A stretch of DNA of 64,000 nt from a virus (taxonomy: Duplodnaviria > Caudoviricetes): positions 222 to 64,221 of IMG/VR virus record IMGVR_UViG_3300029288_000175; one strand, written 5' to 3'. The notes under the pieces are model-generated. The model did not search any database and had not been told where the DNA came from. It worked only from the letters and a program-made list of their open reading frames with translations. Positions 1,173 through 60,534 of the stretch are shown one piece after another (positions within the stretch are counted from its first letter, which is position 1; each line of letters begins with the position of its first letter). Both the position numbers and the translations under genes were made by a program.

Positions 1173-2277
1173 GGTGCTGAACGTTGGCGGCGCGGTCCGG
1201 GCGATGTGCCGTTTCGGCAACGCCAAGGCGCCGATGCCAGAGTTGACCACCATGCAGTTCTCCCAGCGCGCCGGCGCACTGACGGTTCGCGCCACGGACC
1301 TGGCCCTGCGCGCCTGGGCCAGCGTGCCCAACGAGGGGTGCGCCGACTTCGACGCCTTCGTCGAGTTGGAGGAGTGCCGGTACCTCTCAGCCCGCGCCGC
1401 GACGGTCCGCCACGTGCCGGGTGCCGTGGGCGCCGACGCTCCGGGGTACTTGGAGTTCGGTTGGGGAGACGATGGCGGCGAGATCCGGCAACGTCTGCCG
1501 TGCTGGTCCGGTACCGGCGGGTCGGCGAAGCTCACCTGCGTCCCGGACACTACAGGGAGCGTCGCCCAGCCGTACACGCGCGAGTGGTTTGGCCACCTGC
1601 GGGCCGTCGCGCGCATCTCTCATGGTGCGTCCAGCCGCTATGAGTCCCGTCCGCTCCTGGAGTCGGTGTACCAGAATGAGGAGATGTTGGCGGCCACCGA
1701 CGGGTACCGACTGGTGACCACGAGCGCTGCCAGCGGCATGCCGCTGCTGATCCCGTGGCAGTTGGTGCGCGCCGCGTCCCGGCACCTCGGCAACGGCGAC
1801 GGTGTCCTCACCGCGACGCCGTCGCACGTCATCCTTAGCAGCCCCGACGGCTCGCTCGGTGTGGCGGTCGAGACTGTCTATGGGCAGTTCCCACCGGTCG
1901 CGCGGATCATGCGCCAGCAGTACACGTCAGAGTGGCAGGGCCCCACGGCAACCCTACGGGACGTGATGGCCACGATCGTGCACTCAGTTGCCCGTGGACA
2001 GTATGCGCGGTGCACGGTGCACATGGGCAGCAGCGGGGTACTCGACATATCGGATGCTGGCAGGCAGATCACGGCGATGGTCTGGGGCTCCACGGAGATA
2101 GAATCCGGCATCGCCGCGTCCGACTTCGACGTGGACGCGCGGTACGTCCTGGACGCGCTACTGCTGGCGGGGAACGAGGCGGCCGTGACCTGGCGGTGCG
2201 GCGGCGCGGCCTCCGCCTCGACGATCATCACGAGTCAGTACAGCAGCGTGATCATGCCATTGTACAGGGAGGAGTGA
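1165..2277 (+). CDS. DNA polymerase III beta sliding clamp-like protein
   Basis: About 370 aa; ATDLAL, LAATDGYRL, GQFPPVARI, VDARYVLDAL and SVIMPL are characteristic DnaN segments; AGGAGG RBS. Confidence 0.75.
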   Translation: MSRVLNVGGAVRAMCRFGNAKAPMPELTTMQFSQRAGALTVRATDLALRAWASVPNEGCADFDAFVELEECRYLSARAATVRHVPGAVGADAPGYLEFGWGDDGGEIRQRLPCWSGTGGSAKLTCVPDTTGSVAQPYTREWFGHLRAVARISHGASSRYESRPLLESVYQNEEMLAATDGYRLVTTSAASGMPLLIPWQLVRAASRHLGNGDGVLTATPSHVILSSPDGSLGVAVETVYGQFPPVARIMRQQYTSEWQGPTATLRDVMATIVHSVARGQYARCTVHMGSSGVLDISDAGRQITAMVWGSTEIESGIAASDFDVDARYVLDALLLAGNEAAVTWRCGGAASASTIITSQYSSVIMPLYREE

Positions 2278-2278
2278 A

Positions 2279-2533
2279 ATGCCCAGGGGGAAGGTGGCGG
2301 AACTGGTGGCTGAGGCCGAGCGTCGTGGCTGGGTCATCGCGATGTTGGAGCATGACCGCGCGGCCACCGTCGAGCATCGCCTGAGCGACGTGCACGTGGG
2401 GCGTCTGCTGATCACGCGCACGCGCGGGGTGTGCTTGGAGGTGCACGGCAACCTCGGCATGGCGTGGCAGAACATGGACGAGGTGCCGACGGTGGCCGCC
2501 GCGGCCACCGCGATGGCCGGAGCGGTGCTGTGA
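2279..2533 (+). CDS. hypothetical phage protein
   Basis: GGAGGAG RBS, tight packing. Confidence 0.7.
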   Translation: MPRGKVAELVAEAERRGWVIAMLEHDRAATVEHRLSDVHVGRLLITRTRGVCLEVHGNLGMAWQNMDEVPTVAAAATAMAGAVL

Positions 2534-3132
2534 ACGCTACCATGCCGCTCGACGTCATGTCCAGCATGGTCGCGTTCCTGCGCGGGGCCGACGACCCCGA
2601 CGGTAGCGCCGCGGTGGAGGTGATGAACATCACGTTCGCGGCGATAGAGGTGGCCGAGGAGGAGATAGCCGCGGCGAAGGTCGCCTACCCCGACCACGCC
2701 GACGCCATCGACAACGTGTTCGCCGTGGCGTATTCGCCGGCCATACCGGTACGAGCGCCGATAGGGCTGCACCGGACACACGTGCGGCAGTTGTGCCGCG
2801 CGGTTGCCCAGGGCAGCGACCTGGACGTGCCGACCCTCGTCGAGTGGGCCTGCATCGTCGGCATGGGCAGCATTGAGTTGGCCGTGGCGCCCAGCACCAA
2901 CATGTGCGTCCCGTTCATGCGGGATGCAGAGACGATGGCCGCGTTCGGCCAGGAGGCGCAGCCGTACCCCGATCACCTGGGTGCTGAGTTGGTGGAGGGC
3001 ATGAAGGCAGCCTACCGCCACGCCTACGCCGCTCAGCACTGGACCCACAAGCCACGGGCTGAGGCGTATCGGCAGTGCCGTCGCGAGAGAGAAGCGCAGA
3101 TAGCGCGACAGTCGCAGCCATCGCTGCTGTAG
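2530..3132 (+). CDS. hypothetical phage protein
   Basis: GTGA overlap with upstream stop. Confidence 0.65.
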   Translation: MNATMPLDVMSSMVAFLRGADDPDGSAAVEVMNITFAAIEVAEEEIAAAKVAYPDHADAIDNVFAVAYSPAIPVRAPIGLHRTHVRQLCRAVAQGSDLDVPTLVEWACIVGMGSIELAVAPSTNMCVPFMRDAETMAAFGQEAQPYPDHLGAELVEGMKAAYRHAYAAQHWTHKPRAEAYRQCRREREAQIARQSQPSLL

Positions 3133-3143
3133 GGAGGAACGAA

Positions 3144-4028
3144 GTGCAGACGACGAACATCCGCGGGCTGCCCGTGCCTCTGGCGCGGGCCATCGCCCAC
3201 AACGACTACGACCACTTGCCGGGCGCCTACTCGGTGACGAGCCTGGTTAGCCCGCCACGCATACGCATTCTGCGGGAGCGGCACGGTGACGAGATCGTAG
3301 AGGATGTGGCAGATCGCATCTGGCTGTTCCTCGGAACGGCCGTGCACCACGTGACGAACGAGTGGGGAGTGGTCGGGAACGCCCTGCAGGAAGAGCGCCT
3401 GTGCATGCTGCTCGACGGCGCGATGATCGCCGGCAAACCTGACCTGTACCAGGAGGACGGCACGGTGACCGACTTCAAGGTCACCAGCATGTGGTCGGTG
3501 GCGGGGGGGGAGGTCAAACCCGACTGGGTGGCGCAACTCAACTGCTACGCCGCGATCCTGCGTTGGACCGGGTTCCCTGTCCACAACCTACAGGTAGTCG
3601 CCATCCTCCGTGACTACTCGGCAAACCGAGCGCTCGGCAACAGCGACCTTCCCGACAAGGCGGTGATAGCGCTGCCGGTGCCGCTGTGGTCGCACGTGGA
3701 CGCTGAGGAGTACCTGCTGGCCCGCCTACGACTGCACCGGGGTTCTGAGGCACTGAAGGACGAGTACCTGCCAGAGTGCACGGCAGAGGAGCGGTACCAG
3801 GACCCCTCGTGGTGGGCGGTCATGAAGTCTGGCCGCAAGTCGGCCTTGAAGCGGTTCCCCGCCCACCAGCGGCTAGAGGCCGAGGCGATGGCGGAATCCG
3901 TCGTTGGCGGCTACGTTGAGGAGCGACCCAGCGAACCGAAGCGGTGCCTCTCGTACTGTGACGTCGCGCCGTGGTGCTCCTGGTTCCGCCAGTGGCAGGC
4001 GAACGCCGCGGCCGCGCCTGAGGAGTGA
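3144..4028 (+). CDS. PD-(D/E)XK exonuclease, Cas4-like phage nuclease
   Basis: GTAVH, GKPDL..DFKVT, QLNCYA and terminal CLSYCDVAPWC; GGAGG RBS. Confidence 0.8.
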   Translation: MQTTNIRGLPVPLARAIAHNDYDHLPGAYSVTSLVSPPRIRILRERHGDEIVEDVADRIWLFLGTAVHHVTNEWGVVGNALQEERLCMLLDGAMIAGKPDLYQEDGTVTDFKVTSMWSVAGGEVKPDWVAQLNCYAAILRWTGFPVHNLQVVAILRDYSANRALGNSDLPDKAVIALPVPLWSHVDAEEYLLARLRLHRGSEALKDEYLPECTAEERYQDPSWWAVMKSGRKSALKRFPAHQRLEAEAMAESVVGGYVEERPSEPKRCLSYCDVAPWCSWFRQWQANAAAAPEE

Positions 4029-4032
4029 TGAG

Positions 4033-4800
4033 GTGCCCGAGCCAACGCGCCTGAGCGACCTGATACCGCGCCGGCCGGCCGGGGGCGAGGAGGTGCCCCC
4101 GGTTGGACCGGCGTGGGTTGAGCGCGAGTGCCAGGCGTGTCACGGCGCCGGCGTGGTGCTGGTGGACGATGGCAGCGCGTCGCGCATCTATGGCGGCGGG
4201 CGGTTGGTGCCATGCCCACGGTGCGACGCGGGGCGTCAGGCCAGGGAGCGGCACCTGCGCTCCCTGGACGGCATGAACGACGAGCAACGCCTCATGTCGT
4301 TCGCGAACTTCGAGCCGGAGGAGAACGCTGCCGCCCTGCACGCCGTGCGGTGGGCCACGCAACTGAGGCACGGCGTGATCGTGCTGACCGGCACGTACGG
4401 TGTTGGCAAGACGCATCTGCTGAGCGCAGCGGTGAACGCCAGCCGCGATGACGCCCAGGGCACCGGCCTCGCGGTGTACGTGACCATGCCGGAGCTGATG
4501 AACCGGATCAGGAAGGGCATCGACCACCACGAGGACGTGGTGGCGCGGTACGTGTCGTTGCCGGTGCTGGCCCTGGACGAGTTCGGGCGCCAGCACATGA
4601 CCGACTGGGGCAGAGAGCAGATGTTTCGGATCGTGGATGGCCGCTACCTGGCGGCGCGGTCGAAACTGACGCTGGTGGCGAGCAACGACGAACCGGCTGA
4701 GTGGCCCGGCTACGTGCGGTCCCGGTTTACGGACCGCCGCTGCCAGGTGCTACGGATGGGCGGGGCGGACAACCGACCAAGGATGGAGTGGGGCAAGTGA
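4033..4800 (+). CDS. DnaC/IstB-like AAA+ ATPase (helicase loader)
   Basis: Two CxxC pairs, Walker A GTYGVGKT, Walker B LALDEFG, LVASN, RSRF. Confidence 0.85.
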   Translation: MPEPTRLSDLIPRRPAGGEEVPPVGPAWVERECQACHGAGVVLVDDGSASRIYGGGRLVPCPRCDAGRQARERHLRSLDGMNDEQRLMSFANFEPEENAAALHAVRWATQLRHGVIVLTGTYGVGKTHLLSAAVNASRDDAQGTGLAVYVTMPELMNRIRKGIDHHEDVVARYVSLPVLALDEFGRQHMTDWGREQMFRIVDGRYLAARSKLTLVASNDEPAEWPGYVRSRFTDRRCQVLRMGGADNRPRMEWGK

Positions 4801-4815
4801 GTAGAGGAGTGAGAC

Positions 4816-5259
4816 GTGACTGACGAGATGTCCAAGGACCTGCACGACCAGCTCAACGACCTGTTGGGCAACGTGGCGCCATCGCAGTCGGGAGATGAGG
4901 CAGAGATACGCGCGTGGGCGGACAACATCGCAGCCCTGCTGGTGTTGGTCGCACAGTCTAGCACGACGGCCCCGGAGCATTCGCAGTGGGCGGTCGCCAA
5001 GGCGCAGGACAATCCCCTGCTGTTCGTCAACGTGGCGAACATGGTCATGGAGGACGTGATGCGGGAGATGGAGGCGGTAGGAGCCAGCTACGCGACGGAT
5101 AGCGCCGATGCTGGCATTGAAGCGCTCATCAAGTTCTCCCACCGCGCCACCCTCGTGGTGCTCATGCTCAGCCTCGCGTTGACTCGTATGGGGTTGCTGG
5201 ACGGCCTGACCGACCTGTTCACGGCGATGCAGGTGCCTGGGGGGACGCAATGGAAGTGA
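4816..5259 (+). CDS. hypothetical phage protein
   Basis: GAGGAG RBS; helical 147 aa. Confidence 0.7.
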   Translation: MTDEMSKDLHDQLNDLLGNVAPSQSGDEAEIRAWADNIAALLVLVAQSSTTAPEHSQWAVAKAQDNPLLFVNVANMVMEDVMREMEAVGASYATDSADAGIEALIKFSHRATLVVLMLSLALTRMGLLDGLTDLFTAMQVPGGTQWK

Positions 5260-5314
5260 TGATGGAGGATGGGGGGACGCACCGGAGAGAGGGCGTGACG
5301 CGCGGGGGCGTCCG

Positions 5315-5611
5315 ATGAGTCCGCTCAACGCCCTGTTGGCTGGCTCGTTCCCGCGCGGCAACGACCGCGGCGGTTGGGTGCCGCGCGGTGACTACGGTGG
5401 CGGGGCGCCGCGCCGCCTGCCATGCGGGTGTCGTGCGGGCAAACGGTGCACGCAGGCGCAGGCCATGTGGCTGGCGATGAACGCAGCGGCGCGCACTGCC
5501 ACACGTACTGGCCGCTACAACCAGTACACGTACCTGAGGCAGGAGTTCATACGGCACTACACCGGCCAGGCGGTGACGCCCGGCGCGATACTCGCAACGA
5601 CATGGAGATGA
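5315..5611 (+). CDS. hypothetical phage protein
   Basis: ORF in co-directional run. Confidence 0.55.
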   Translation: MSPLNALLAGSFPRGNDRGGWVPRGDYGGGAPRRLPCGCRAGKRCTQAQAMWLAMNAAARTATRTGRYNQYTYLRQEFIRHYTGQAVTPGAILATTWR

Positions 5612-5625
5612 TGTGGAGGAACACG

Positions 5626-6069
5626 ATGCTGAGTGAGGAGCAGTTGACCGGCATCGAGACGCGGTGCGAGGCCGCGACTCCGCTCTACCAATACGCGTCG
5701 CACGTCGATGAGGACGGCGACCACTACAGCCGCGTGTTCGACCTCGAAACGCCCGGTCGGATTCTGCTTGTGACCTATGGCGGCAACCACCGTGCTAACG
5801 CCGATCTGGCAGCCGCCGCCCGTGACGACGTGCCCGCGCTGCTGGCCGAGGTGCGACGGCTGGCGGCGGTGGCGAGGGCGGTCATCGCAGAGCGCGAGGA
5901 GGAGCGGCGGTTTTTAGCGCATCGCTATGGGGTCATGGGGATAACACCGCCAGAGCGCCCGCAACGCCACGACCCTGGCTGTTCCAGCGACCTGGCGCGG
6001 TGGATCGAGGCCAGTTACGTCCTTGACGACGCCCTCGCCGCTGCCGGCTACGAGGTGAACGATGCCTAG
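5626..6069 (+). CDS. hypothetical phage early protein
   Basis: GGAGGA RBS; typical MLSEEQLxxIxxRCEAATP...DVPALLAEVRRL phage pattern. Confidence 0.7.
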   Translation: MLSEEQLTGIETRCEAATPLYQYASHVDEDGDHYSRVFDLETPGRILLVTYGGNHRANADLAAAARDDVPALLAEVRRLAAVARAVIAEREEERRFLAHRYGVMGITPPERPQRHDPGCSSDLARWIEASYVLDDALAAAGYEVNDA

Positions 6070-6445
6070 ACTGGCGCAGGGATGCGAGGAGTGCCCGCAT
6101 GTTAGCCGTCCGGTGACGATGATCCCACTCTACATCTGCAACCACCCAGGATGCCACGATGACGGCATCGTCCTGCCTGGTGGCATGCCGGACAGTTGCC
6201 CGTTGCCGGAGGTGGTCGCAACCGCCCAGAACCCCTGGGTACCATGCGGGCAGGCGCTTCCCACGCCGGTCGTAGAGGTGCTGTTGTACCGCTGCATCGG
6301 ATATGCCGAGGCCCCGTACGTGACGAGTGGGTGGTTCTTCGGCGGCCACTGGGAGACGGACGCGGGGCATAGGGAGCGACTCTACTTCGACTACTGGATG
6401 TTGTTGCCGCCCGTACCTAGAGCGAGGTATGCACATGAGCAGTGA
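6062..6445 (+). CDS. hypothetical Cys-rich phage protein
   Basis: Overlaps neighbours on both sides. Confidence 0.6.
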   Translation: MPRLAQGCEECPHVSRPVTMIPLYICNHPGCHDDGIVLPGGMPDSCPLPEVVATAQNPWVPCGQALPTPVVEVLLYRCIGYAEAPYVTSGWFFGGHWETDAGHRERLYFDYWMLLPPVPRARYAHEQ

Positions 6446-7106
6446 AGAGTTGGCCACGGTCCTGGCCGCCCACGCGGCGTGGCTGCGTGACGATCCTGCC
6501 GGAACTCGTGCTGACCTGAGTCACGCGGACCTGTACGGTTCTGATCTGGTAGGCGCCATCCTGCGCGGGGCCGACCTGAGTCACGCCGACATGCACCGCG
6601 CCGAACTGAGTCATGCCGATCTGAGCCGTGCCGACATGAGGAGCATCGACCTGGAGAGGGCCCACCTGTACATGGCCAAACTGGTCGGCGCCCACTTATG
6701 CGACGCTTGCTTGTGCGACGCCGACCTACACAGTGCCGACCTGAGCGGCGCCGACCTGCGCGACACCTGCCTGATGCGCGCCGAGCTGGGCAAAGCCAAC
6801 CTGAGCGGCGCCGACCTGCGCGGCGCCGACCTGCCCGATGCCAACCTGGACGGAGTCAAACTACTTGAGGCCCATGGCATCATCACCCTGGGGCCGATCG
6901 GCTCGCGCGGTGCTATGCTCTACGTCGTGGCGCATGAGCACTGCCGCATGTACCAGACCGGGTGCTTCTGGGGTGACGAGGTCGCGTTCCTGGCCCGTGT
7001 GCAGAACATCCACGGGGGCGACGAGCACGGGCGGGCGTACCGTGCGGCGGTCGAACTCGCACGGTTGCTGCTGCCAGTAGAGGTGGCGAAGGAGGAAGGG
7101 GAGTGA
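6435..7106 (+). CDS. pentapeptide repeat protein
   Basis: A(D/N)L(S/R)xA repeats followed by the GPIGSR...YQTGCFWG phage C-terminal domain. Confidence 0.9.
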   Translation: MSSEELATVLAAHAAWLRDDPAGTRADLSHADLYGSDLVGAILRGADLSHADMHRAELSHADLSRADMRSIDLERAHLYMAKLVGAHLCDACLCDADLHSADLSGADLRDTCLMRAELGKANLSGADLRGADLPDANLDGVKLLEAHGIITLGPIGSRGAMLYVVAHEHCRMYQTGCFWGDEVAFLARVQNIHGGDEHGRAYRAAVELARLLLPVEVAKEEGE

Positions 7107-7315
7107 GCGAGTGGGGTTACGGACATGATGGCGTGTCCGTGTGTATCACGTATCACGGGAAGTTCGTCCCCATCGAGACGGCGGCAAAGCGGTGGCGCAA
7201 GGCCGGCATCACTGCCAGTGCCATTGGTTCGCCCGATTCGATGGGGGAATACATGGATGCCAGGCAGGCTCTCGTGGCCTCCCTCGACGGGCAGGAGGCG
7301 CAGCATGGCGAGTAA
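7103..7315 (+). CDS. hypothetical phage protein
   Basis: GTGA overlap. Confidence 0.6.
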   Translation: MSEWGYGHDGVSVCITYHGKFVPIETAAKRWRKAGITASAIGSPDSMGEYMDARQALVASLDGQEAQHGE

Positions 7316-7793
7316 CCAGACACCGACGGTTCAGAACATCGTGGTCGCCTGGCTCCGCGAACATGAGTACGACGGACTGTACTGCGCCATCCCACACTCC
7401 TCCTGCGCTTGCCAACTGGAGAACATCATGCCGTGCAGTTGCTACATGGTCGTTTGCCGCCCCGGCTACTACCAGCCCTGCCCGCCTGAGTGCGGAGAAC
7501 ACGACTGGCACATCGGGCCGGAGAAGCCGGCAGGGGAGGCAGCGGCACGACCCCACAAGTGCCGCGACGCTGGAACAGCCGTGGAAACCGCCGTCCACGC
7601 CAACGGCCTAGACACGCTACGTACGGCGCTGGCTCGTACGCGTGATGACCCGGTGGAAGCCAGCGCGGCGTACCAGGCACTGGTGCGGGGACTGGAGACA
7701 TTCGCACGTCACATCATTGACCAGTGGAAGGCTAACTACGTCGCCGAGGCGCAGGCCGCCCTCGTCGGACAGGAGGCAGCGCATGGCGAGTGA
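7305..7793 (+). CDS. hypothetical Cys-rich phage protein
   Basis: AGGAGG RBS; GLY..CAC.L.NIMPC pattern. Confidence 0.65.
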   Translation: MASNQTPTVQNIVVAWLREHEYDGLYCAIPHSSCACQLENIMPCSCYMVVCRPGYYQPCPPECGEHDWHIGPEKPAGEAAARPHKCRDAGTAVETAVHANGLDTLRTALARTRDDPVEASAAYQALVRGLETFARHIIDQWKANYVAEAQAALVGQEAAHGE

Positions 7794-8106
7794 CGCGGGC
7801 TTCACCAACATCCTGGCCGTCTATGGTCAGGAGTACTGGCATAGAGACGTGATGGTCATTGGCGACCGGGGCGGTCTGACGGTGCTCCGCGACGTCATCG
7901 ACAGAGCGCTCGCCAAGGGCGCCGCTGAGGCCGACGTGCTCGTGCAGGACGGCGAGGGTTACACGGTCTACGTGGCCAGGGGCGACAGTTACGCTGAGTT
8001 GGCCGATTTGAGGGTGCCGTACAAGCACCCCGTGGCCCGGAGTGAGCACGGGGCGTCGGCCTGGTACTATGTGCTAGGCAAACTGGAGGCAGGACGTGGC
8101 GACTGA
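7783..8106 (+). CDS. hypothetical phage protein
   Basis: AGGAGG RBS. Confidence 0.65.
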   Translation: MASDAGFTNILAVYGQEYWHRDVMVIGDRGGLTVLRDVIDRALAKGAAEADVLVQDGEGYTVYVARGDSYAELADLRVPYKHPVARSEHGASAWYYVLGKLEAGRGD

Positions 8107-59582: not shown

Positions 59583-59587
59583 TCGTA

Positions 59588-59653
59588 GCCGAAAGCCCCC
59601 CAGCGCGGGGGGTTCCGCCGGGGCTGGCCGCCCGACGCTGATGAGGCAGGCTG
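59588..59653 (+). ncRNA. type II hammerhead ribozyme
   Basis: GCC-GAAA-stem III-UUC-stem I-CUGAUGA-GGC with possible loop I/3' pseudoknot. Confidence 0.8.
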
Positions 59654-59665
59654 AGGAGAGGTGCA

Positions 59666-60256
59666 GTGATGGGTGTGAAGATGACGAGGAATGATGCGGG
59701 GGAGATCGAGCTGTCTACGCCGTTTCACCCGAGCGTCCCGCCAGCCGCGCGTGATCTGGGAGGGAAGTGGATCGCATCGCGCGAGGTATGGACGTTCGAC
59801 CCACGTGACGAGTCGAACGTACGCGAGATGGTGCGGCGCATCTTCGGCACTGACGGCAGCGATCAGCCGCGGCTGGTCACGGTCATGCACCGCGTGACCT
59901 CTCGGGAGAGTCAGAACTCGACGCTCTGGTTCTGCGGGCGCGAGGTGGCGCAGCGCCCCGTGCGCGATGCGCGGGTGCGGCTCGGTACCGGGGTCCGGTA
60001 CGCTGGCGATGCTCAGTTCCCCGGTTCTGGTGGCAGCGCGAAGTACCCTGCGCTGAACGCCACTGGTCTGGTGCTCGAGATCCGCGACGTGCCAGTGGAG
60101 TTGGCAGTCGCAGCAGTGAACGACGACACGTGGATCGTTGATGATGTGGGCCCGGTCGAGCCCGTGGGGGAGTCCGACGACCCGCTCGCCGGCACCGACG
60201 ACGCTGTGCTCGTGGCGGAGATGGAGCGTCGCGGGTACGTCGTAAGCCGCAGGTGA
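59666..60256 (+). CDS. hypothetical early protein (HARP-like N-terminus)
   Basis: TPFHP....ARDLGGKW....WTF; GAGGAG RBS. Confidence 0.7.
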   Translation: MMGVKMTRNDAGEIELSTPFHPSVPPAARDLGGKWIASREVWTFDPRDESNVREMVRRIFGTDGSDQPRLVTVMHRVTSRESQNSTLWFCGREVAQRPVRDARVRLGTGVRYAGDAQFPGSGGSAKYPALNATGLVLEIRDVPVELAVAAVNDDTWIVDDVGPVEPVGESDDPLAGTDDAVLVAEMERRGYVVSRR

Positions 60257-60325
60257 GCCGAAACGCCCGCGTGTAGGCGCGGGCATTCGCCGGGGCTGGC
60301 CGCCCGGCGCTGACGAGGCAGGCCA
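60257..60325 (+). ncRNA. type II hammerhead ribozyme (second copy)
   Basis: GCC-GAAA-stem III-AUU-7-bp stem I-CUGACGA-GGC; UGGCC/GGCCA pseudoknot; C-A mismatch next to the core. Confidence 0.65.
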
Positions 60326-60339
60326 CTGGGGAGGGCACG

Positions 60340-60534
60340 ATGGCAACAGTGACAGAGCAGCGCACCACGCTTCGCGTCATCTGCGCCTGGTGCGGGCGCG
60401 TGCTCGGCACCAAGGACGGCAAGGGCATCAGTGGCGACAGCCATACCTGCTGCCACGAGTGCCTCACCAAGATGCTCGCCGGCGTGTGCGAAGTGCCGGA
60501 CACGGACGATGATGCGGAGGTGGCGTCATGCTGA
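60340..60534 (+). CDS. small zinc-finger protein
   Basis: VICAWCGR.LG.KDG...SH.CC.EC. Confidence 0.75.
   Translation: MATVTEQRTTLRVICAWCGRVLGTKDGKGISGDSHTCCHECLTKMLAGVCEVPDTDDDAEVASC

Follow-up and report, generated by a model that had tools for sequence, protein, structure and literature searches.

The window that we analysed is a stretch of 64,000 nt with a G+C content of 66%, taken from an IMG/VR record of 64,221 bases (linear class, completeness estimated at 79%) that represents an uncultivated, high-GC phage, probably an actinophage. On the + strand, a replication-initiator (O-like) gene is followed by several small ORFs, an ORF for a protein of 233 aa, a first hammerhead ribozyme motif (copy 1), an ORF of 196 aa, referred to here as the bracketed gene, and a second hammerhead motif (copy 2), with which this report is mainly concerned. 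Downstream of copy 2 lie ORFs of 64 and 77 aa, and then a gene for an SNF2 helicase that is interrupted by an intein. The two ribozyme copies share strand and orientation with the phage replication genes that surround them, and no convincing terminator was found between them. The positions of these features, and of the structural elements of copy 2, are collected in Table 1.

Table 1. Positions of genes, ribozymes and ribozyme elements in the 64,000-nt window
Feature	Position	Strand	Remarks
Upstream gene, 233 aa	58881..59582	+	Stop codon 4 nt before copy 1
Copy 1, type II hammerhead	59587..59655	+	Rfam 47.4 bits; triplet UUC
Copy 1, predicted cut	59615/59616		
Direct repeat, 37 bp	59616-59652 and 60288-60324		35 matches
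Bracketed gene	59666..60256	+	196 aa from GTG 59666 or 195 aa from ATG 59669; PHROG 18108
Bracketed gene, stop codon TGA	60254-60256	+	Abuts copy 2; ends at the first base of the motif
Copy 2, whole motif, type II hammerhead	60256..60327	+	RF02276, 47.6 bits; own model R1, 98.8 bits
Copy 2, stem II	60257-60259 with 60317-60319	+	5' strand GCC with GGC; script-checked
Copy 2, core G12 A13 A14	60260-60262	+	
Copy 2, stem III hairpin	60263..60286	+	Loop UGUAGG
Copy 2, stem III pair 15.1/16.1	A60263-U60286		
Copy 2, stem III mismatch 15.2/16.2	C60264.A60285		
Copy 2, stem III, seven Watson-Crick pairs	60265-60271 with 60278-60284		
Copy 2, U17	60287	+	Triplet A-U-U at 60285-60287; from the Rfam alignment and the alignment with copy 1 and relatives
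Copy 2, predicted cut	60287/60288		
Copy 2, stem I hairpin	60288..60309	+	Bulged G, no mismatch
Copy 2, core C3-A9, CUGACGA	60310..60316	+	
Copy 2, pseudoknot, 5 bp	60297-60301 with 60321-60325	+	Loop I UGGCC with 3' tail GGCCA
RBS and start codon of next gene	60328..60342	+	RBS GGGGAGGG at 60328-60335, ATG at 60340; directly after the pseudoknot tail
Downstream gene, 64 aa, Cys-rich	60340..60534	+	

The product of the bracketed gene has 41 metagenome homologues besides its own entry, a few of which carry an HTH domain (HTH_17/MerR-type), and relatives occur in Mycobacterium, Streptomyces, Frankia and Anaerolineaceae assemblies. Its AlphaFold model, for which 31 homologues served as input, is confident, with a mean pLDDT of 92; searches of Pfam and of PDB sequences gave no match for this protein, and comparison of its fold with the PDB gave no clear one. 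Only residues 1-63 showed a weak likeness to small alpha/beta nucleic-acid-binding modules, such as the N-terminal domains of XPB and T4 UvsW, at Z values of 5-6.4, which is a range common for unrelated folds. The 64-aa ORF downstream of copy 2 contains a CxxC ... CCHEC pattern, possibly a zinc ribbon, and matched nothing in Pfam or PHROG. The collections searched contained no close relative of this phage. A comparison of the 3-kb region with 50,697 phage records by DNA similarity returned no match, the 233-aa upstream protein had no relatives in IMG/VR, and the 3' half that the two ribozymes share, used as an exact pattern, was found in no other IMG/VR contig.

The defining trait of type II hammerheads is an open stem II, and stem II of copy 2 is open. 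In an Rfam scan (cmscan), the segment was assigned to Hammerhead_II (RF02276) with E = 1.2e-6 and a score of 47.6 bits, above the gathering score of that family, 37 bits, and the alignment covered the full model (positions 1-66). Only two RNA family matches in the window exceeded the Rfam cut-offs, both of them to Hammerhead_II, and the scan revealed no further hammerheads in the window or in the whole 64.2-kb record, even at E <= 1. Every invariant base of the core (C3 U4 G5 A6 N7 G8 A9; G12 A13 A14) is present in copy 2; N7 is C, as it is in 31 of the 138 unique copies from other contigs that are described below. The pairs that border the core are likewise intact, namely 1.1-2.1 (C60288-G60309), 10.1-11.1 (C60259-G60317) and 15.1-16.1 (A60263-U60286), and these are the three pairs required by Perreault et al. 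for a candidate to be accepted (PMC3088659). The triplet of copy 2 conforms to the N-U-H rule with A15.1-U16.1, and its five pseudoknot pairs exceed the minimum of at least 4 pairs between loop I and the 3' tail. A Watson-Crick pair at 15.2/16.2, which is a typical but non-defining trait of the family, is lacking from copy 2, where C60264 faces A60285.

By motif, family membership and position, then, copy 2 is a genuine type II hammerhead. The preliminary description had placed a second hammerhead, like copy 1, between a stop codon and an RBS, and both the Rfam score and the coordinates agree with that placement; the CUGACGA core and the perfect UGGCC/GGCCA pseudoknot that it listed are both present, and the AUU triplet with a C-A mismatch next to the core was found again at the positions given in Table 1. 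We also considered an alternative register of copy 2 with a UUC cleavage site, and rejected it because the 1.1-2.1 pair is lost, an extra base is introduced before C3 and stem III is shifted.

When the fold of copy 2 was constrained, both hairpins, stems I and III, were obtained. The folding energy of the copies was not distinct from that of shuffled sequences (z from -0.9 to +0.1), a comparison that is uninformative for a sequence of 77% G+C. The folds of copy 2 contained neither an extended stem II that masked the RBS nor a 3' tail that masked the core. There was one additional observation in these predictions. The minimum-free-energy fold contained an alternative helix of 7 pairs with one bulged A, in which 60252-60259 (GGUGAGCC) pairs with 60321-60327 (GGCCACU), and which would compete with stem II and the pseudoknot; its equivalent in copy 1 has 5 pairs (UAGCC with GGCUG). 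This helix was without statistical support (z = 0.1) and may be a simple consequence of a GGC-A-GGC repeat.

Comparison of the two copies showed that differences in sequence are accompanied by the retention, or improvement, of pairing. Two pairs of stem III are swapped on both sides in copy 2 relative to copy 1 (C-G to G-C), and the stem is one pair longer in copy 2; where stem I of copy 1 has a C.A mismatch, copy 2 has C-G; and two G.U wobbles in the copy 1 pseudoknot are Watson-Crick pairs in copy 2. Two earlier statements, that stem III differs in sequence and still pairs (GCCCGCG/CGCGGGC) and that the stem I mismatch of copy 1 is repaired by an A to G change, are thus confirmed by the alignment. 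The similarity between the copies is distributed unevenly. The 37-bp direct repeat comprises their 3' halves (stem I, core, stem II strand and start of the tail), and identity falls to 57% in the paired columns of stem III. Other arrays exhibited the opposite trend, with 69% identity in stem III and 57% in stem I, and the pattern seen for copies 1 and 2 recurred in 2 of 102 within-array pairs. In general, hammerheads resembled each other more within one phage than between phages. The pattern seen here would fit a 3' half that was recently duplicated or subjected to gene conversion. With such a possible event, and with 35 of 37 positions identical between the 3' halves, the intact core becomes a weaker sign of long-term selection on copy 2 itself.

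As 2 sequences carry little statistical power by themselves, the decisive evidence on RNA structure comes from the family. A covariance model that we built from copies 1 and 2 was searched against 120 IMG/VR loci (L065-L184) that had been fetched with a loose core pattern; a first search gave 148 matches in those contigs, and a second search added 35. We aligned 140 distinct ribozymes, made up of 138 unique ones from other IMG/VR contigs and the 2 from the window. On these sequences the structure was 92.8% paired, and the covariation score was 0.63, compared with 0.16 for shuffled sequences and 0.04-0.09 when pairing partners were slid. The pseudoknot, which had been left out of the model used for the alignment, was 85.5% paired and displayed many swaps between G-C and A-U. 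The stems and the pseudoknot of the family are clearly under selection at the RNA level, and copy 2 is compatible with the family structure, to which it conforms throughout except at one pair. The proposal that covariation between the two copies reflects selection on RNA structure is therefore upheld for the family, and carries modest power when based on the two copies by themselves.

The 140 aligned ribozymes also revealed a common layout. Where an upstream ORF was present (118 cases), its stop codon ended within -1 to +2 nt of the start of the ribozyme in 88 (TAG 34, TAA 31, TGA 23); a start codon followed within 45 nt of the motif in 125 of 140. Because the stop codon overlaps or abuts the first bases of the hammerhead, a terminating ribosome would sit on the 5' strand of stem II. 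At least 2 copies on the same strand were present in 33 of 116 loci, with up to eight in a few kb, and copies on both strands of one locus were never observed in these 116 loci. The median spacing between copies was 709 nt in the family, as compared with 669 nt here. The order of stop codon, ribozyme and RBS is, in summary, a rule of the family, and copies 1 and 2 fit the clustered type, being on the same strand, in intergenic gaps of a phage replication module, and flanking ORF 59666-60256.

Arrangements of this type have precedents. Multiple hammerheads that flank individual genes, with the flanked genes not constant, were described in prophages by Perreault et al. in 2011, who found that the clustered prophage copies cleave in vitro and in vivo, and who proposed that they process long phage transcripts into single-gene mRNAs (PMC3088659). 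Copy 2 resembles the type II hammerheads of that study (RF02276) in its core, in its three-stem topology with open stem II and in its pseudoknot between loop I and 3' tail, and the pair resembles the clusters of that study in being intergenic within a phage operon, with several copies flanking single genes (PMC3088659). It differs from the RF02276 phage copies in the combination of AUU with C.A at 15.2/16.2, which was absent from the 138 that we sampled. In Desulfovibrio vulgaris, two neighbouring type II hammerheads (loc 2 and loc 3) were shown by Olzog et al. in 2021 to cut both in vitro and in living cells (PMC8782182); these copies, too, are a few hundred nt apart and near phage-like genes, although they belong to a host of another phylum, lie in a chromosomal prophage-like region and flank other genes (PMC8782182).

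Among cultured phages, the Streptomyces phages BartholomewSD (MK460245.1) and Spernnie (MT701594.1) contain 6 and 7 copies, respectively, above the Rfam cut-off, in arrays that occupy gaps between small genes (positions 1485-5129 and 3977-7083), and none of these hammerheads is annotated in the GenBank records. The high-GC actinophage setting and the location of copies in gaps between small genes are shared with the window, and one copy in each of the two phages has the U17 of copy 2 and a very similar stem I. Unlike copy 2, these U17 copies have a GUU triplet with a normal C-G at 15.2/16.2; the genes that flank the arrays are unrelated to those around copy 2, and the arrays are larger, with 6 to 7 copies. 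Each of the two phages also has a back-to-back tandem, with 1-2 nt between copies, in which the first copy is GUU (U17) and the second is GUC. The layout has been known from phages since 2011 and is shown by many phage contigs, and copy 2 is a clean but ordinary example of it.

We then asked about linkage between the ribozymes and the genes beside them through homologues of those genes. Loci that encode relatives of the bracketed gene were fetched with a 10-sequence alignment, which yielded 60 loci. In these, and in one related IMG/VR record, no Rfam family scored above its cut-off within 3 kb, and our own hammerhead model had no match in any of them; since none of the 60 has a hammerhead, the bracketed gene and the ribozymes are not linked. 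Loci of distant SNF2 relatives (37-48% identity) were also free of hammerheads by Rfam and by our own model. In the loci searched, neither the ribozymes nor their occurrence as a pair was conserved beside homologues of the flanking genes. A separate observation concerns contig L181 of IMG/VR, which had been found by the core pattern. It encodes an SNF2 homologue 40% identical to that of the window, and two type II hammerheads precede this gene by a few kb on its own strand (coordinates 6096-8106 and 1275-2594, both on the - strand); the arrangement of the module is similar and the phage is otherwise unrelated.

The one respect in which copy 2 departs from its family is at the cleavage site. 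Among the 138 unique other copies the triplet was GUC in 114, GUA in 10, GUU in 5, UUC in 4, and CUC, AUC and AUA in 1 each, with a gap at 16.2 in 2; AUU was found in 0. U17 was present in 5 of the 138. The 15.2/16.2 pair was C-G in 128 of the 138 and mismatched in 2, both of which were C.U and neither C.A; in all, 3 of the 140 distinct sequences lack a standard pair at this position, namely copy 2 and the copies in contigs L163 and L075. The combination of AUU with C.A is thus unique to copy 2 in this comparison. In minimal hammerheads, the chemical step is slowed by mismatches in the innermost pairs of helix III. A literature search on the effect of a mismatch at 15.2/16.2 yielded nothing usable. 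In a published ranking of triplets, AUU falls in the same tier as UUC and above GUU, as determined with trans-cleaving minimal ribozymes in which 16.2 was paired (PMC8879150). The closest BartholomewSD and Spernnie copies, from phages of different genera, both have U17, which argues that U17 is maintained in this sub-lineage, and copy 2 resembles a hammerhead of the GUU type in which the G at 16.2 has become A. Owing to U17 and C15.2.A16.2 together, cleavage by copy 2 may be slower than that by a GUC copy, and the uniqueness of that combination among 138 others makes a lower rate plausible.

The same deviation could be taken to mean that copy 2 is a crippled or decaying duplicate, essentially inactive, so that only copy 1 cuts. 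The absence of AUU with C.A from 138 natural copies, 128 of which have C-G at 15.2/16.2, speaks for such a view, and since the 3' half is nearly identical to that of copy 1 there may have been little time for decay of the core to show. Yet the Rfam score of copy 2 equals that of copy 1, its core bases and the three core-adjacent pairs are intact, and it has the longer stem III and the better-paired stem I and pseudoknot, which is the opposite of what decay predicts. Moreover, AUU shares one tier of published activity with the UUC of copy 1 (PMC8879150), U17 persists in the most similar copies from two genera of cultured phages, and the nearest metagenomic relative of copy 2, which lies in L163 and scores 70.6 bits, shares its stem III sequence and is likewise mismatched, with C.U, at 15.2/16.2. 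We consider an inactive copy 2 unlikely, and the deviation at its cleavage site as unusual yet probably tolerated. The earlier suggestion that copy 2 is slower or decaying is accordingly kept in its first half, as a plausible expectation; U17 in other copies, the triplet tier and the L163 mismatch give no indication of the second.

We favour the reading, with a probability of roughly three in four (0.77), that copy 2 functions as a type II hammerhead that cuts the long, rightward message of the replication module into single-gene mRNAs. From the motif, the family, the position and the generality of the layout, all of which were observed, we infer cleavage, co-transcription of the genes and an effect on the fate of the mRNA. 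Each ribozyme would fold during transcription, with stems I and III forming as local hairpins; the 3-bp stem II would close the junction, and stem I would be docked against stem II by the pseudoknot that loop I forms with the 3' tail. Each would then cut itself after position 17, so as to convert the polycistronic message to single-gene mRNAs. The upstream piece would retain its stop codon, with the stem III hairpin and a 2',3'-cyclic phosphate at its 3' end, and the downstream piece would begin with a 5'-OH and the stem I hairpin, with the RBS directly after it. As an outcome, the stability and the yield of neighbouring genes would be uncoupled. The effect of a 5'-OH end on mRNA decay varies between bacteria, so that it could act in either direction here.

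It has also been proposed that the copies serve as recombination points, which would make them mainly direct repeats at the DNA level that bound exchangeable cassettes, with recombination moving or deleting the gene between them. The 37-bp repeat formed by the 3' halves, the greater likeness of copies within a phage than between phages, and the inconstancy of flanked genes reported by Perreault et al. (PMC3088659) are all compatible with such a role. We regard it as very improbable: the 60 other loci that contain a member of the bracketed gene family are free of hammerheads within 3 kb, our searches found no related phage in which equivalent copies enclose a different gene, and the strong covariation, which includes the pseudoknot, reflects selection on RNA. 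The repeat could support deletion of the gene by recombination, and any such recombination would be a side effect of the repeat; the cassette claim of the preliminary description is not supported.

Processing of the message by both copies would, from the chemistry of hammerheads, release an RNA of 672 nt (59616-60287) with a 5'-OH and a 2',3'-cyclic phosphate, and to that extent the suggestion that the bracketed ORF is excised as a discrete RNA is retained, on condition that both copies cut. The further step, in which the 672-nt RNA is closed into a stable circular mRNA by reverse hammerhead ligation or by a host ligase of the RtcB type, is hardly credible, even though the predicted ends are chemically right for ligation, the joined ends would rebuild a complete hammerhead from the shared stem II and stem I sequences, and Perreault et al. 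named the possibility: those authors looked for splicing or circularisation of RNAs from comparable arrangements without detecting either (PMC3088659), the open stem II has only 3 bp and would hold the cleaved ends weakly, our literature search returned no report of phage circular RNAs formed in such a way, and the fragment is an ordinary unit of RBS, ORF and stop codon. With the 3-bp stem II as the only contact between the ends, self-ligation is expected to be poor and a host ligase would be needed; closure of the RtcB type, which would produce an exonuclease-resistant, translatable circular mRNA of 672 nt, is scarcely to be expected. If it did occur, a circular mRNA would be a means for the phage to keep the product of one early gene high. 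Retrozymes and viroid-like RNAs (PMC7761336) resemble the present pair in having two hammerheads in direct orientation, several hundred nt apart, that would release a ligatable unit. Their hammerheads are of type I or III, the RNAs are non-coding or RNA-replicating, and their circles have been demonstrated (PMC7761336); the unit here, unlike theirs, is a gene with RBS, ORF and stop codon in the operon of a dsDNA phage. Circularisation, as put forward in the preliminary description, accordingly finds no support.

In the aggregate, copy 2 is a further member of a class known since 2011, and one that Rfam detects at default settings. The stereotyped layout of these ribozymes makes their role in phage gene expression easy to pose as an experimental question. 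Copy 2 itself, with its AUU triplet and C15.2.A16.2, could reveal how much deviation next to the cleavage site is tolerated by full-length hammerheads that are stabilised by a pseudoknot.
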